Sequence record: PZ154895.1
Strand: one strand, 5' to 3'
From: a phage
Length of the DNA: 64,000 nucleotides
The position numbers and the translations under genes are program-made. Below, one piece after another: positions 15,107 through 24,140 of this stretch. The notes beneath the pieces were generated by a model. The model made no database searches. It saw nothing but the letters and a program-made list of their open reading frames with translations, and was not told the origin of the DNA. Every line of letters starts with the position of its first letter. The first letter of the stretch is position 1.

Positions 15107-15283
15107 ATGGCAAAACAAGCTAAAGCAAAGAAAGCAGTTGAAAAGAAAGTTGGTGATTCTAAACGCGCTGGTTACAAGCGTGGGTCGAACTCTCGTATCA
15201 ATCAAACTGTTGAGAAGATCATGCGCCGAGCACGTGCGGTTCTTCGAGATGATGCTTCTCGTTTTGGTAAGCAGAAAGCATAA
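15107..15283 (+). CDS. hypothetical small highly basic protein (58 aa)
   Basis: MAKQAKAKKAVEKK... Lys/Arg-rich; own RBS; strong terminator follows; longer ORF 15065 lacks RBS. Confidence 0.5.
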   Translation: MAKQAKAKKAVEKKVGDSKRAGYKRGSNSRINQTVEKIMRRARAVLRDDASRFGKQKA

Positions 15284-15287
15284 GTTG

Positions 15288-15316
15288 AGGACTCCTTCGG
15301 GAGTCCTTTTTTATTT
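15288..15316 (+). terminator. rho-independent terminator
   Basis: hairpin aggactccttcgggagtcct with UUCG loop followed by tttttatttt. Confidence 0.8.
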
Positions 15317-15336
15317 TCCAAAGATTGCATAAAGTT

Positions 15337-16492: not shown

Positions 16493-16708
16493 ATGTTTAA
16501 GAAATTAATCCAGAAATTACTGGGCACGGAAATGGTCGAAGTTACTTATCGTGTGACTGATGTCTCTCCGCTCACTGAAGACCATTTAGAGCCATATATT
16601 ATGACAATTAAAATGCTTAAACACGATGGCGGATTATCTATTGAAGACCGTTTACCAAGTTATGGTCATTGGGCTGATATTGAAATTATAAGTATTAAAG
16701 ATGTCTGA
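16493..16708 (+). CDS. hypothetical small protein (71 aa)
   Basis: ORF, coupled to next gene. Confidence 0.45.
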   Translation: MFKKLIQKLLGTEMVEVTYRVTDVSPLTEDHLEPYIMTIKMLKHDGGLSIEDRLPSYGHWADIEIISIKDV

Positions 16709-17159
16709 GTTAGAGATTAGAAGCAATTTTAGATGGCCATCATGTGCATTAAGTAATTTCGCCCAATGGCCTTTCGTTATGGATGGCATTCAATTTGGAG
16801 GTCTCGAAGGATTCCTCCAAGGGTGTAAGGTGAAAAATGTTGAACATCAAAGACGTATATTTGGGTTATCCGGGCTTGCCGCCCAACAAGCTGGAAGGTC
16901 TTATGCTAGAGCTCAGGACCGTGGGACCCTCTTCTGGCTTGGAGTTCCGTTTTCAAGATACTCCCCGGCGTGGAAAGAATTATACACAAATGCATATTTT
17001 GAAGCAGCGATCCAAAACAAGGGCTTTCGCGATGCATTACAAGCCTCGAAAGGAAAAGTTTTGAAGCACAGCATGGCTAGTGGTCTAACAAAAGATGATA
17101 CAATACTAACCGAAGCTGAATTTATTGATGTGTTAAACCTATTAAGAGACTCTCTATGA
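16701..17159 (+). CDS. NADAR (YbiA-like) domain protein
   Basis: 152 aa; LSNFAQWPF...DG...EGFLQGCK closely matches the YbiA/NADAR signature FSNFAAWP...DG...EHYFQAQK as I recall it. Confidence 0.65.
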   Translation: MSELEIRSNFRWPSCALSNFAQWPFVMDGIQFGGLEGFLQGCKVKNVEHQRRIFGLSGLAAQQAGRSYARAQDRGTLFWLGVPFSRYSPAWKELYTNAYFEAAIQNKGFRDALQASKGKVLKHSMASGLTKDDTILTEAEFIDVLNLLRDSL

Positions 17160-18019
17160 AGCCAACTATTTTGACTGATATTGATGGAGTATGTTTAAGC
17201 TGGCAATCAGGCCTTCCTTATTTTGCTCAGAAATATAATCTTCCGTTAGAACATATTTTAAAAATGATCCAAGATGAGAAATTTATTTCTCCAGGTAAAC
17301 TCTTTAATTGTGATGAAGAACTTGGTGTCAAGTTAATTGAAAAATACAATCGTTCAGATTTTATTCGTTACTTGTCTCCGTATAAAGATGCCCTGTGTGT
17401 AATTAACAAATTAAAAGAAGATTATAATTTTGTAGCTGTTACAGCATTGGGTGATTCTATTGACGCTCTGTTGAATCGTCAATTTAATTTGAATGCTCTT
17501 TTTCCTGGTGCCTTCTCAGAAGTAATGATGTGTGGTCATGATTCTTCAAAAGAAGAGTTATTCAAAAAGGCAAAAGAGAAATATAACGTAATTTGTTATA
17601 TTGACGATCTCGCTCACCATTGCGATCATGCGAGTGAAATATTAAATGTTCCGGTTTATTGGATGGCTCGAGGAGAGCGTGACAATATTCCAAAAACTGC
17701 GCAGCGAGTTTATACATGGAATGATGTAGAAAATAAGCTTTTTTCACCAAAGGAAAATAAAGAAAGTTTTGATAGTGAAAAAGCTATAAAAGATGTAATT
17801 GAGAAGATGGTTAAAAACGATTCTTTTCGTTGGAACACTACTTGGAGAACTCCTGGATTTAATCCGTATAATCCATATTATACACATCCATATAATCCAT
17901 ATTATACACACCCGTATCATATGAATCCATTCCATACGTGGAGTTATACCAAGCCTGGCGATGCAGGATATTTTAATAGATTTACTAGTGGTGATAATAT
18001 TTTCCAAGGAGCATTCTAA
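17156..18019 (+). CDS. HAD-superfamily phosphatase-like protein with Tyr/Pro/His-rich repeated C-terminus
   Basis: 287 aa; N-terminal DxDG motif LTDIDGV; C-terminal NPYNPYYTHPYNPYYTHPY repeat. Confidence 0.6.
   Translation: MKPTILTDIDGVCLSWQSGLPYFAQKYNLPLEHILKMIQDEKFISPGKLFNCDEELGVKLIEKYNRSDFIRYLSPYKDALCVINKLKEDYNFVAVTALGDSIDALLNRQFNLNALFPGAFSEVMMCGHDSSKEELFKKAKEKYNVICYIDDLAHHCDHASEILNVPVYWMARGERDNIPKTAQRVYTWNDVENKLFSPKENKESFDSEKAIKDVIEKMVKNDSFRWNTTWRTPGFNPYNPYYTHPYNPYYTHPYHMNPFHTWSYTKPGDAGYFNRFTSGDNIFQGAF
17861..17914 (+). repeat. intragenic tandem repeat (2 exact 20-nt copies, period 24)
   Basis: tataatccatattatacaca at 17867-17886 and 17891-17910. Confidence 0.9.
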
Positions 18020-18288
18020 TGTTTGTCGTTCACACTATTTATGAAAATGAAGGTAATACTACACGTGATTACGGTCACGTAAATCAATTTTTTAGATGCA
18101 ATCCAGAATTCCGAGCTCAAAAAGACGAACGAATTTTTAAAAAATGTGTAGAGCAAGGTTTCATTTACGTCAAGCATTGGATGCAAGGAAATAAAGTTAG
18201 AACTACATATCATAAGTCTTTGCCTGAGCTTAATGATGAATTGATTTATAATAGAGCTGTAAACCAAACCTTGAAGGATGAGCAATGA
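18019..18288 (+). CDS. hypothetical protein (89 aa)
   Basis: ATGA-coupled ORF immediately upstream of ligase. Confidence 0.5.
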   Translation: MFVVHTIYENEGNTTRDYGHVNQFFRCNPEFRAQKDERIFKKCVEQGFIYVKHWMQGNKVRTTYHKSLPELNDELIYNRAVNQTLKDEQ

Positions 18289-19748
18289 TTCTTAAAATTC
18301 TGAATGAAATAGCATCTATTAGATCAACTAAGCAGAAGCAAGCAATTCTTGAAAAGAATAAAGATAATGAATTGCTTAAACGAGTATATCGTCTGACTTA
18401 TTCTCGTGGGTTACAGTATTATATCAAGAAATGGCCTAAACCTGGTATTGCTACCCAGAGTTTTGGGATGTTGACCATTACCGATATGCTTGACTTCATT
18501 GAATTCACGTTAGCTACTCGGAAATTAACTGGCAATGCAGCAATTGAGGAATTAACTGGATATATCACTGATGGTAAAAAGGATGATGTTGAAGTTTTGC
18601 GTCGAGTGATGATGCGAGATCTTGAATGCGGTGCTTCAGTATCTATTGCAAACAAAGTTTGGCCAGGTTTAATTCCTGAACAACCTCAAATGCTCGCAAG
18701 TTCTTATGATGAAAAAGGCATTAGTAAGAATATCAAATTTCCAGCTTTTGCGCAGTTAAAAGCAGATGGAGCTCGGTGTTTTGCTGAAGTTCGAGGTGAT
18801 GAATTAGATGATGTTCGTCTTTTATCACGAGCTGGTAATGAATATCTAGGATTAGATCTTCTTAAGGAAGAATTAATCAAAATGACTGCTGAAGCCCGCC
18901 AGATTCATCCAGAAGGTGTGTTAATTGATGGCGAATTGGTATACCATGAGCAAGTTAAAAAGGAACCAGAAGGCCTAGATTTTCTTTTTGATGCTTATCC
19001 TGAAATTAGTAAAGCTAAAGAATTCGCCGAAGTAGCGGAATCTCGTACTACTTCTAATGGAATCGCCAATAAATCCTTAAAAGGAACCATTTCTGAAAAA
19101 GAAGCTCAATGTATGAAGTTTCAGGTCTGGGATTATGTCCCGTTGATAGAAATATACGGTCTTCCGGCGTTTCGTTTAAAATATGATGTACGTTTTTCTA
19201 AACTAGAACAAATGACATCAGGATATGATAAAGTAATTTTAATTGAAAACCAAGTAGTAAATAACCTAGATGAAGCTAAGGTAATTTATAAAAAATATAT
19301 TGACCAAGGTTTTGAAGGTATTATTCTCAAAAATACCGACGGATTGTGGGAAAATGCTCGTTCAAAAAATCTCTATAAATTTAAAGAAGTAATTGATGTT
19401 GATTTAAAAATTGTAGGAATTTATCCTCACCGTAAAGACCCTACTAAAGCGGGTGGATTTATTCTTGAATCAGAGTGTGGAAAAATTAAAGTAAATGCTG
19501 GTTCAGGCTTAAAAGATAAAGCCGGTGTAAAATCGCATGAACTTGACCGTACTCGCATTATGGAAAACCAAAATTATTATATTGGAAAAATTCTAGAATG
19601 TGAATGCAATGGTTGGTTAAAATCTGATGGCCGCACCGATTACGTTAAATTATTTCTTCCGATTGCGATTCGTTTACGTGAAGATAAAACTAAAGCTAAT
19701 ACATTCGAGGATGTATTTGGTGATTTTCATGAGGTAACTGGTCTATGA
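18285..19748 (+). CDS. 30: ATP-dependent DNA ligase
   Basis: 487 aa; adenylation motif KADGAR; recognised as T4 DNA ligase. Confidence 0.95.
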   Translation: MILKILNEIASIRSTKQKQAILEKNKDNELLKRVYRLTYSRGLQYYIKKWPKPGIATQSFGMLTITDMLDFIEFTLATRKLTGNAAIEELTGYITDGKKDDVEVLRRVMMRDLECGASVSIANKVWPGLIPEQPQMLASSYDEKGISKNIKFPAFAQLKADGARCFAEVRGDELDDVRLLSRAGNEYLGLDLLKEELIKMTAEARQIHPEGVLIDGELVYHEQVKKEPEGLDFLFDAYPEISKAKEFAEVAESRTTSNGIANKSLKGTISEKEAQCMKFQVWDYVPLIEIYGLPAFRLKYDVRFSKLEQMTSGYDKVILIENQVVNNLDEAKVIYKKYIDQGFEGIILKNTDGLWENARSKNLYKFKEVIDVDLKIVGIYPHRKDPTKAGGFILESECGKIKVNAGSGLKDKAGVKSHELDRTRIMENQNYYIGKILECECNGWLKSDGRTDYVKLFLPIAIRLREDKTKANTFEDVFGDFHEVTGL

Positions 19749-19985: not shown

Positions 19986-22079
19986 ATGGAACTCATTACA
20001 GAATTATTTGACGAAGATACTACTCTTCCGATTACAAACTTAAATCCAAAGAAGAAAATACCACAAATTTTTTCAGTTCATGTTGATGACGCAATTGAAC
20101 AACCAGGCTTTCGTTTATGTACCTATACATCTGGAGGTGATACTAATCGTGATTTAAAGATGGGCGATAAAATGATGCATATTGTTCCTTTTACATTAAC
20201 TGCTAAAGGTTCAATTGCTAAATTAAAAGGTCTCGGTCCAAGCCCAATTAATTACATCAATTCAGTTTTTACTGTTGCAATGCAGACGATGCGTCAGTAT
20301 AAAATTGATGCCTGTATGCTCCGTATTCTTAAGTCTAAAACTGCTGGTCAAGCTCGTCAAATTCAACTTATTGCTGATAGACTTATCCGCAGTCGTTCAG
20401 GTGGCAGATACGTCCTTCTTAAGGAACTCTGGGATTACGATAAAAAGTATGCATATATTCTTATACATCGCAAAAATGTATCACTAGAAGACATTCCAGG
20501 AGTTCCGGAAATTAGCACCGAGCTCTTTACTAAAGTTGAATCGAAGGTCGGTGATGTTTATATCAATAAAGATACTGGAGCTCAAGTAACTAAAAATGAG
20601 GCAATTGCAGCATCTATTGCACAAGAAAATGATAAACGTTCTGACCAAGCTGTAATCGTTAAAGTTAAAATTTCCCGTAGAGCAATTGCGCAAAGTCAGT
20701 CATTGGAATCTTCTAGATTTGAAAGCGAATTATTCCAGAAGTATGAATCTACCGCAGCTAATTTCAATAAACCTGCTACCGCTCCTTTAATTCCCGAAGC
20801 AGAAGAAATGAAGCTTGGAATTAATTCATTAGCTTCTAAAACTAAAGCAGCAAAAATTATTGCCGAAGGAACTGCAGATGAACTTCACTATGACTATAAA
20901 TTCTTTTCAAAAAGTGAGGTTAATGAAGTTTCTGAAAAAATTAAAGATGTAATTCTTAATGCGATTAAAAATGAACCAACTACTTCAATAAAATGTTTAG
21001 AGAAATACGCAGCAGCTGTTAATAAATTCTTTGAAGAATACAAAGATAAATGGCTTGATAAACATAATAAAACCCGTAAAGGACAGCCAGATGAAGTCTG
21101 GGAAGAAATAACTAAAAATTCCTGGAACGCAGCAAAAACTAAATTCCTCAAACGAATGATTTATAGCTTTTCTGGAATTGGTGCAGGTCCAATGATTGAT
21201 ATTACCATTGCACGTGATGGTTCTAAATATACTCCATCGCAAAAGCGCGGTATTAGAGAGTATTGTGGATCAGGATATACTGACATCAATAATCTTCTTT
21301 TAGGCCGCTACAATCCAGAACGATATGATGTAATGAGCGAAAAAGAAATTGAATCTGCGATAAATAATTTAGATTCAGCTTTTGAAAATGGTGACCGTAT
21401 ACCAGAAGGCATTACAGTTTATCGTGCTCAAAGTATGACTGCTCCTATATACGAAGCACTAGTTAAAAATAAAGTGTTCTATTTCAGAAATTTTGTATCT
21501 ACTTCTTTAACTCCTATCATTTTTGGACGTTTTGGAATTACACATGCTGGTATCGGTCTTTTAGAACCAGAAGCTCGTAATGAATTAACAGTTGATAAAA
21601 ATGAAGAAGGAATAACTATTAATCCAAGCGAAATAAGAGCGTATAAAGAAAATCCTGAATACGTTAAAGTTCAAATAGGATGGGCAATTGATGGAGCTCA
21701 TAAAGTTAATGTTGTATATCCAGGAAGTCTCGGAATAGCAACAGAAGCTGAAGTTATTCTACCACGCGGATTGATGGTCAAAGTTAATAAAATAACTGAT
21801 GCTTCTAATAATGATGGAACAACATCTAATAATACAAAACTCATTCAAGCTGAAGTTATGACTACGGAAGAACTCACCGAATCAGTAATTTATGACGGTG
21901 ACCGTCTAATGGAAACCGGCGAAGTAGTTGCAATGACAGGTGATATTGAAATAGAAGACAGAGTTGACTTTGCATCATTTGTTTCATCAAATGTTAAACA
22001 GAAAGTAGAATCATCTCTTGGATTTATTGCGTCTTGCATAGATATTACAAACATGCCTTACAAGTTCGTTCAAGGATAA
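19986..22079 (+). CDS. alt: Alt ADP-ribosyltransferase (head-packaged)
   Basis: about 697 aa; N-terminus MELITELFDEDTTLPITNL; R / STS / E-x-E ART motifs (YRAQ, FVSTSL, EAEVILPRG). Confidence 0.9.
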   Translation: MELITELFDEDTTLPITNLNPKKKIPQIFSVHVDDAIEQPGFRLCTYTSGGDTNRDLKMGDKMMHIVPFTLTAKGSIAKLKGLGPSPINYINSVFTVAMQTMRQYKIDACMLRILKSKTAGQARQIQLIADRLIRSRSGGRYVLLKELWDYDKKYAYILIHRKNVSLEDIPGVPEISTELFTKVESKVGDVYINKDTGAQVTKNEAIAASIAQENDKRSDQAVIVKVKISRRAIAQSQSLESSRFESELFQKYESTAANFNKPATAPLIPEAEEMKLGINSLASKTKAAKIIAEGTADELHYDYKFFSKSEVNEVSEKIKDVILNAIKNEPTTSIKCLEKYAAAVNKFFEEYKDKWLDKHNKTRKGQPDEVWEEITKNSWNAAKTKFLKRMIYSFSGIGAGPMIDITIARDGSKYTPSQKRGIREYCGSGYTDINNLLLGRYNPERYDVMSEKEIESAINNLDSAFENGDRIPEGITVYRAQSMTAPIYEALVKNKVFYFRNFVSTSLTPIIFGRFGITHAGIGLLEPEARNELTVDKNEEGITINPSEIRAYKENPEYVKVQIGWAIDGAHKVNVVYPGSLGIATEAEVILPRGLMVKVNKITDASNNDGTTSNNTKLIQAEVMTTEELTESVIYDGDRLMETGEVVAMTGDIEIEDRVDFASFVSSNVKQKVESSLGFIASCIDITNMPYKFVQG

Positions 22080-22082
22080 ATC

Positions 22083-24140
22083 ATGGAACTTATTACAGAA
22101 TTATTTGACGGCGCTTCGGCGCCGGTTGTTAACTTAAATCCTAAGCATAAAATACCTCAAATTTTTGCTATTCAAGCTGGTGAAGAAAGTGTGCTTCCTG
22201 GATTTAGATTTTGTACATACACCTCTGGCGGTGATACAAATAAAAACGTTAAGCCAGGCGATAAAATGATGCATATCGTAATGATAGGTGTCAATGAGAA
22301 ACTATCATTAGTTAAACTTAAAAGCTTAGGTGGAAATCCAATTGGTGTCATTAATGCGGTTTTTGATACTGCTCTTCAAACAATGAAACAGTATAAAATT
22401 GACGCATGCCTATTCCGCGTACTAAAAAGTAAAACAAATGGCGCTGCTCGTCAAATTCAAGTTATTGCTGACCGTTTAGTACGTACTAAAGGAGCAGGTC
22501 GATATGTTCTTTTAAAGGAAATCTGGGACTATGATAAAAAGTATGCATATATTATGGTTTACCGTAAAAATGCCAATTTAGAAGACATTCCAGGTGTACC
22601 TCCTATTTCAACTGAGTTATTCACAAAAGTTGAATCAAAGGTTGGTGATGTTTATGTAGACGTTAAAACAGGTAATGCTGTTCCTAAAGCTGTTGCTGTT
22701 GCTGCTTCTATTGCTTTAGAAAATGATAAGCGTACAGATCAAGCTGTTATTCAGAAAACTAAAATTAGTCGTCGATTAGCAGCACAAGCTCAATATTCTA
22801 CTGTCGATGCTTCACTTCAGGGCGATAGCTTCGCTGCTAAGAAATATCAAGAGTTTGAATCTAAAGTTCCGGTATATAAAGCAGAAGGACCAATGAACTC
22901 TGGCGTTATTCAGATTGGTTCAAACTTCAGCAAAGGAGCTATCGGTGGTATGAGAAGTGCTTCTCGTTTTAAATCTAACGATTATGAACTAGAAAGCTTC
23001 CGAAATCATATTGCATTGGCCCATGCACGTTTACGTGATCCATCTATTAAATTACAGAGCGATATAACATATCAAGGTTCTCAGGAATATTTAAAGAATA
23101 AAGAATTCTTTGATTATAAAACCGATAAAATTTTGAGCGATCTTGCTGACATTAATATTTCTAATAGCTTTGATGTTATTAAGAAAATTGTCAATGATTT
23201 AGTTAAAGGTTCTAAAGCCACGCCAGATGAAAAGGTAGCTATTATTCAATTTGTCATGAATGGCATTTATAAATTGATTAATGAGTCTGCTTCTCAAGCG
23301 TATGAATATGCAAGTACTGAAGTACCCCCAAAAGGATTAACTCAGGCTGAGTCCGATGTAATTGAAGATTATTGTGCAGATTCATATGTTGAAATGAACT
23401 CGTTCCTCTTGGGTAAACCAGATTCTACTCGTGAAGAATACATGGAACGAGCTATTAAACACATCGAGACGCTGGATTCTGCATTCGCCAAAGGATCAGT
23501 TCTTCCTCCAGGAACTACGCTTTATCGTGGACAAGAAGTTACTTTTAAAACTTTACGCCATAATATTGAAAATAAAATGTTCTATTTCAAGAACTTCGTA
23601 TCAACATCGCTTAAACCAAATATCTTCGGTGAGTATGGTAAAAACTATATGGCTTTAGATGATTCCAGTGCAGTATTTTCTGGTGAAGGAGAAGGTTCAG
23701 TTGATGCTGAAGATTTAATGCATATGGGTAGTCACTCTGCTTATGCGAATGAAGATGCTGAAACTAGCGTGGGTATGGTAATTAAAGGAGCTGAGCGAAT
23801 CAAAGTTATCGTTCCAGGACATTTATCAGGATTTCCATCAGAAGCTGAAGTTATTTTACCGCGTGGAATTTTGCTGAAGATTAATAAAGTGAGTACGTAC
23901 ATGATGAAAGAAACTGCTTATAATAAGTATCTAATCGAAGGCACAATCGTTCCTCCTTCTGAACAATTAGAAGAATCGGTATATGATGGCGACCATCTAA
24001 TGGAAACTGGTGAAGTTCGTCCAATGGCTGGATTTAATCAATTCCTTGTAGAAGAATCAAAAGAAGAGGAAAACGAAGTTTCTCAAATCTTGGCTTCTTT
24101 GGTTAACATCAACGGAATGTCTAAAAAGTTCAAGATGTAG
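22083..24140 (+). CDS. Alt-like ADP-ribosyltransferase paralog
   Basis: 685 aa; same N-terminal propeptide MELITELFD and same R / STS / E-x-E motifs; diverged central region. Confidence 0.85.
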   Translation: MELITELFDGASAPVVNLNPKHKIPQIFAIQAGEESVLPGFRFCTYTSGGDTNKNVKPGDKMMHIVMIGVNEKLSLVKLKSLGGNPIGVINAVFDTALQTMKQYKIDACLFRVLKSKTNGAARQIQVIADRLVRTKGAGRYVLLKEIWDYDKKYAYIMVYRKNANLEDIPGVPPISTELFTKVESKVGDVYVDVKTGNAVPKAVAVAASIALENDKRTDQAVIQKTKISRRLAAQAQYSTVDASLQGDSFAAKKYQEFESKVPVYKAEGPMNSGVIQIGSNFSKGAIGGMRSASRFKSNDYELESFRNHIALAHARLRDPSIKLQSDITYQGSQEYLKNKEFFDYKTDKILSDLADINISNSFDVIKKIVNDLVKGSKATPDEKVAIIQFVMNGIYKLINESASQAYEYASTEVPPKGLTQAESDVIEDYCADSYVEMNSFLLGKPDSTREEYMERAIKHIETLDSAFAKGSVLPPGTTLYRGQEVTFKTLRHNIENKMFYFKNFVSTSLKPNIFGEYGKNYMALDDSSAVFSGEGEGSVDAEDLMHMGSHSAYANEDAETSVGMVIKGAERIKVIVPGHLSGFPSEAEVILPRGILLKINKVSTYMMKETAYNKYLIEGTIVPPSEQLEESVYDGDHLMETGEVRPMAGFNQFLVEESKEEENEVSQILASLVNINGMSKKFKM

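Follow-up and report, generated by a model that had tools for sequence, protein, structure and literature searches.

A 24-nt in-frame coding repeat of variable copy number in the predicted disordered tail of a T4-like gp30.2

The window, by which we mean the whole 64-kb stretch of phage DNA analysed here (64,000 nucleotides of record PZ154895.1), carries an orthologue of T4 gene 30.2 on its plus strand (17156..18019, +; 287 aa). The gene is preceded by the orthologue of gene 30.3, which encodes AdfN (16701..17159, +), and followed by those of gene 30.1 (DUF3045; 18019..18288, +) and gene 30, the ATP-dependent DNA ligase (18285..19748, +). The start codon of 30.2 overlaps the stop codon of 30.3 (ATGA), and its stop codon overlaps the start codon of 30.1 (TAATG). 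The annotated T4 match of the gene is gene 30.2, a 'conserved hypothetical protein', and the T4 order 30.3 - 30.2 - 30.1 - 30 (DNA ligase) was found to be identical in the window. Megablast of the 30.2 ORF returned 618 phage records, nearly all Tequatrovirus, including T4, T2, T6, the RB phages and many Escherichia, Shigella and Yersinia isolates. The top identity to the window gene was 98.8%, with no record in the collection higher, and a 22-kb stretch of the window was ~97% identical to several Tequatrovirus genomes, which were the best matches in the collection. The window therefore comes from a Tequatrovirus to which no genome in the collection is identical. Upstream of the 30.x genes, a match to the Rhizobiales sRNA Atu_C8 at 15239-15322 (+) fell below the Rfam threshold (31.4 bits, where the gathering score is 50; E 0.0018) and is probably due to chance. 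The product of gene 30.3 is AdfN, described as a NADAR anti-DarTG1 counter-defence factor of T4 in a paper where 30.2 is named as a map landmark (PMC11825919). Our literature searches for gp30.2, including those combining 30.2 with HAD or phosphatase, returned no paper on this protein.

Residues 1-195 of gp30.2 (17156..17740, +) form a domain with the fold of HAD phosphatases, as judged from its motifs, AlphaFold2 and Foldseek. The catalytic motifs can be assigned to D8 and D10 (motif I), T96 (motif II), K132 (motif III) and D150 and D151 (motif IV). In an alignment of 77 homologues, D8, D10, K132, D150 and D151 were invariant and T96 was at least 90% conserved. AlphaFold2 modelled the domain with pLDDT of 92-98, and a Foldseek search of the PDB with the model gave 95 matches at E <= 0.001 (best E 4e-8, probability 1.0); the best 50 of these 95, three engineered designs among them, all had the HAD fold. 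The protein thus has both the motifs I-IV and the Rossmann-like core with a cap by which members of the HAD superfamily are recognised. The label 'HAD-like', which the original prediction had attached to this protein, is justified by motifs and fold, and we regard gp30.2 as a predicted, confidently modelled HAD-fold phosphatase.

Family-level assignment of the protein was less direct. Pfam and NCBIfam scans of the whole window gp30.2 gave no match, and PHROGs placed it in phrog_420 ('unknown function') with a weak match to polynucleotide kinase. PF00702 was matched by 8 of the 77 homologues (best E 1e-4), and PF06941 weakly by 6 of the 77 (best E 1.2e-4), the window protein not being one of these six. 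Closest in fold were the 5'(3')-deoxyribonucleotidases cdN and mdN (NT5C, PF06941; 2jao, 2i7d, 1mh9) and the deoxyribonucleotidase-like 3bwv, which share with gp30.2 the HAD Rossmann-like core, an alpha-helical cap and a DxDGV motif I (target-normalised TM 0.63-0.71, rmsd 4.3-5.9 Å, Foldseek probability 1.0). However, sequence identity to these nucleotidases was 13-20%, and they have no aromatic/Pro-rich tail. The gp30.2 family profile matched 2jao weakly (E 0.058); gp30.2 is at most a candidate member of the NT5C family.

The domain is joined, through a helix predicted by AlphaFold2 with moderate confidence at residues 202-220 (17759..17815, +), to an aromatic/Pro-rich and predicted disordered tail at residues 229-287 (17840..18016, +). 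The tail contains, in order, the anchor WRTPG (17843-17857, +), the repeat, the segment HMNPFHTW and a degenerate end motif, GDAGYFNRFT. In the AlphaFold2 model, pLDDT of residues 228-287 was mostly below 50, and a second model, made for a T4-type allele with the GIEYL-type alignment, agreed with the first (tail pLDDT 30-40). These models predict that the repeat-bearing tail is disordered, although low pLDDT may instead reflect a shallow or poorly aligned MSA. The window tail (residues 229-287) is composed of 15% Tyr, 14% Pro, 12% Thr, 10% Asn, 10% Phe and 7% His and is poor in charged residues, and in 53 homologous tails only Trp (3.1x), Pro (3.0x) and Thr (2.0x) were enriched relative to the domain. 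Searched alone, the tail matched no Pfam family, and its matches to PDB sequences were at chance level (all E > 0.5).

The tail was absent from 16 of the 77 homologues, which end 25 residues or fewer from W188 and include proteins of Acinetobacter and Shewanella phages. From this alignment, the tail is best described as an optional or accessory extension across the family. In the Acinetobacter phage (L031, 2517-5181), a tail-less homologue of 219 aa immediately precedes the ligase gene, the order being 30.3 - 30.2 - ligase. In the Thanatos-like Shewanella phage (L033, 3001-5008), a tail-less homologue of 199 aa is found in the order 30.2 - ligase, with no 30.3. These two tail-less homologues still adjoin the ligase gene, and the adjacency of the HAD gene and the ligase gene is therefore older than the tail.

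Where the tail is present in the T4-containing subfamily, it carries two conserved islands, W(K/R/V)xP(G/D) and GxGIEYLxxQPT, separated in the aligned GIEYL-type subfamily by roughly a dozen to ~30 residues. The duplication in the window sits in the gap-rich block between the two islands. T4 and distant Klebsiella- and Enterobacter-type phages retain GxGIEYLxxQPT, with Glu, Tyr and Thr at least 90% conserved (n = 19). The end motif of the window/T2-type tail, GDAGY-FNR(F/L)T (17948-17980, residues ~265-275), is a degraded form of this second island. Pairwise Nei-Gojobori dN/dS was 0.00-0.05 in the HAD domain; in the tail, where only ~50 codons could be compared, it was 0.0-0.4, and no value exceeded 1. 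This indicates that the tail is translated and constrained, less so than the domain, with no sign of diversifying selection.

Inspection of the sequence located the exact 20-mer tataatccatattatacaca at 17867-17886 and again at 17891-17910, a start-to-start distance of 24 nt, as the original prediction had described. TRF reported an array at 17862-17917 (period 24, 2.3 copies, 90% matches, 0 indels, score 98) with a weaker 9-nt period, TAATCCATA, nested within it at 17860-17902. The first full unit (17862..17885, +; ATCCGTATAATCCATATTATACAC) reads PYNPYYTH in the gene frame from 17864. The second (17886..17909, +; ATCCATATAATCCATATTATACAC) was 96% identical to it in the repeat search, the sole mismatch being a synonymous G/A difference (CCG/CCA). 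A partial third unit (17910..17917, +; ACCCGTAT) completes the 2.3 copies and closes the array at its 3' end. Within the ORF at 17156-18019 the repeat is in frame and encodes residues 236-254, NPYNPYYTHPYNPYYTHPY, the Tyr/Pro/His peptide near the C-terminus that had been claimed. When the window was simulated 200 times under a first-order Markov model, the longest exact tandem run per simulation (period 4-60) averaged 11.3 nt and reached at most 15 nt, compared to the 20 nt observed. The array was also the only tandem repeat with a score of at least 50 in the whole 64-kb window. The repeat is therefore no chance match: it is real and far beyond chance expectation, with at least two copies head to tail as in a VNTR.

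The original prediction held further that such a repeat can expand or contract, giving tails of variable length, and proposed a comparison of copy number among related isolates. Copy number in the relatives was not identical. A 76-nt query across the array matched 61 phage records, 60 of which were listed and assessed. Intact two-unit arrays were present in 56 of these 60 (~49 distinct phages after GenBank/RefSeq de-duplication), so that two-unit phages make up roughly 10% of gp30.2-bearing records; with gp30.2 carried by 618 records, all allele frequencies given here are estimates from samples. In the remaining four, the matched span was 24 nt shorter (D5505), 9 nt longer (RPN226), split in two (BYEP01) or scrambled (AV120). 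Translation of the arrays gave NPY-(NPYYTHPY)x2 before HM in the window, IME339 and others (2 copies, gene of 864 nt), NPY-NPYYTHPY before HM in D5505 (1 copy, 840 nt) and NPY-(NPYYTHPY)x3 before HM in BYEP01 (3 copies, 888 nt). The unit added in BYEP01 has the same sequence as the internal one. RPN226 carries a 33-nt register variant, (NPYNPYYTHPY)x2 before HM (873 nt). Among the listed records of the window haplotype, two copies were found in ~56, one copy in 1-2 and three copies in 1. The predominance of two copies could reflect either shared ancestry or selection for two copies.

Deletion of one 24-nt period from the window array yields exactly the D5505 sequence. D5505, with one copy, differed from the metagenome contig L024, with two, by 1 substitution in 840 nt in addition to the 24-nt indel. 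The copy-number change is therefore recent and took place on an essentially identical background. A metagenome search with a degenerate back-translated pattern recovered one contig with the haplotype, this same L024 with its 2 copies, and none of the 10 loci found in an IMG/VR scan had the window haplotype. With 1-, 2- and 3-copy alleles and a 33-nt register variant on one haplotype, the predicted expansion and contraction of the tail is directly supported.

Outside this haplotype, the corresponding peptide is NPYNPYHPYQ in T4, NPYNLYHPYHPYQ in T6, NPYNHLYHPYQ in ime09, NPYNPYYTHSHQ in T2 and NPYNPYHPYYTHSHQ in G8, DalCa and JK38, and Ozark is a recombinant of the two tail types, window/T2-type and T4-type. 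These other T-even alleles vary by whole 9-nt modules encoding xPY or YTH. Gene lengths of 837, 840, 843, 849, 855, 864, 873 and 888 nt were observed, all multiples of 3, and every intact allele reads through to the common C-terminus IFQGAF. The frame was kept in 11 of the 12 full-length genes compared, the exception being AV120. Variation of copy number between close relatives, by a unit that is a multiple of 3 and keeps the frame, is the behaviour of a coding VNTR.

Two of the genomes showed irregular arrangements at the locus. In AV120 (OR352950; L021, 893-1000), the array is scrambled (AATCCATTATAATCCATATTATACAATCC...) and contains an in-frame stop, and the annotation splits the gene into two CDS; either the repeat was sequenced wrongly or the gene is a true pseudogene. 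In phage Ge15 (PP359696, ~20170-22555), the annotation places IS-type transposase genes, InsC and InsD, immediately behind 30.2, and a second copy of the 30.2 3' end follows them, with the 2-unit repeat in both copies. Either an IS element has inserted into this lytic T4-like genome, with a duplication, or the assembly is chimeric.

We believe that the array is an in-frame 24-bp coding VNTR, produced by slippage or unequal recombination in a length-tolerant linker, and that its copy number is approximately neutral; we put the probability of this reading at about three in four. T4 recombination is very active, and T4 is prone to slippage and unequal-recombination events; the deletions and duplications between short direct repeats in the rII genes are the classical case. 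The duplicated unit is the 8 residues NPYYTHPY, lying in what would be an intrinsically disordered linker within the C-terminal extension of gp30.2, and this linker is made up of 9-nt xPY modules, AATCCATAT and CATCCATAT. The 9-nt direct repeats, and now also the 20-nt exact repeats, likely mispair during replication or T4 recombination, the pair of exact 20-mers (17867..17910, +) being the proposed substrate in the window. Mispairing of this kind would add or remove whole modules, by slipped-strand mispairing or by unequal homologous recombination, two routes that would leave indistinguishable sequences. Out-of-frame products would be lost, as they would destroy both the constrained distal tail and the TAATG coupling of 30.2 to 30.1, to which 30.2 is probably coupled in translation. 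In this scheme, purifying selection on the downstream tail lets none but the in-frame products survive. The number of units most likely has little or no phenotypic effect because the segment would act as a flexible linker.

The same variation could in principle be adaptive. The xPY array might form an interaction surface, or a spacer that sets the reach of the C-terminal motif, with copy number under selection; candidate partners would be a host protein, a T4 replication or nucleotide-metabolism protein, or AdfN. Conservation of the short motifs W[KR]xPG and GxGIEYLxxQPT across genera is suggestive of a docking peptide, purifying selection acts on the tail (omega 0.1-0.4), and the 2-copy allele predominates on its haplotype among the listed records. 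AdfN, encoded directly upstream, may require another T-even protein for full function (PMC11825919). However, the end motif is degraded in the window/T2-type haplotype itself, dN/dS never exceeded 1, linker length varies widely where the tail exists at all, and the tail matched no known domain or solved structure. We consider tuning of this kind unlikely. A more specific version, in which the xPY array and its conserved flanking motifs make up a fast-evolving tether that couples gp30.2 to AdfN, the ligase or a host defence protein, with adaptive copy number, strikes us as decidedly improbable.

The peptide composition had also prompted the suggestion, in the original prediction, of a role in metal binding or protein interaction. 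A His/Tyr-rich repeat could chelate metal, each duplication adding sites, and each unit does contribute one His and three Tyr, with 4 His in the 59-residue tail. However, the four His of the window tail are scattered, with no HxH or HH cluster, and they are not conserved between T-even alleles, T4 having different residues here. The tail thus offers no clustered, conserved His/Cys ligands. Across the 53 homologous tails, His was depleted relative to the domain (0.63x) and Tyr was not enriched (0.92x). HAD enzymes hold their Mg2+ in the core by means of motifs I and IV, both of which gp30.2 has intact. Metal chelation by the repeat thus appears very doubtful. More generally, sequence comparison lends no support to a function resting on the Tyr/Pro/His character of the tail, and neither do the absence of the tail from part of the family and its predicted disorder.

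The array could alternatively act as DNA, with the TATAAT in each unit serving as an extra -10-like box for transcription of 30.1 or the ligase gene. TATAAT does occur twice in the array, and a sigma-70-like site with 10/12 matches ends at 17872 (+). However, promoter-like sites were not enriched (8, compared to 6.8 ± 2.7 in shuffles), and TATAAT is no more than the two codons for Tyr and Asn in the PYN peptide. Conservation of both frame and peptide modules in 11 of the 12 full-length genes points instead to a constraint acting on the protein. Scans for promoters, terminators and Rfam families found nothing at the repeat, and we give a DNA-level role very little credence. A sequencing or assembly artefact, for which the possibly erroneous AV120 array might be cited, is a negligible prospect: 56 of the 60 listed records, which come from many laboratories, share the identical 2-copy array, an independent metagenome contig carries it too, and at 56 nt the array is far shorter than a sequencing read.

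The array has little significance on its own; it is a tidy natural case of a phage gene that expands and contracts in frame through its repeat, with possible use as a strain-typing marker among Tequatrovirus isolates. It also draws attention to gp30.2, a conserved, uncharacterised protein with the fold of HAD phosphatases, encoded between the AdfN and DNA ligase genes of T4-like phages. The order of HAD gene and then ligase gene is kept as far as the phages of Acinetobacter and Shewanella, and in the Tevenvirinae the enzyme bears an aromatic/Pro-rich tail, predicted to be disordered, with short conserved motifs. If the tail were a partner-binding tether, the natural 1-, 2- and 3-unit alleles would be ready-made variants of linker length. 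If, further, the tether were adaptive, the copy-number change would amount to an adaptive 'contingency' mechanism in a lytic phage.

Phase-variable contingency loci resemble the array in that a slippage-prone repeat lies in the gene of an accessory, possibly host-interacting, region. In contrast to such loci, the 24-nt unit and its 9-nt sub-unit keep the frame, and there is no on/off switching. We rejected phase variation on the grounds that all length changes were multiples of 3, every intact allele was in frame and promoter-like sites were not enriched. Coding VNTRs in disordered segments were the closer parallel: like them, the array has head-to-tail units, a unit length that is a multiple of 3, alleles of 1, 2 and 3 copies and a location in a low-complexity segment predicted to be disordered. 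It differs from the usual coding VNTRs in being very short (1-3 units), in its nested 9-nt sub-period and in having no attached phenotype. The instance in the window appears to be undescribed, and as an in-frame VNTR in a segment predicted to be disordered it belongs to a kind that is well known.
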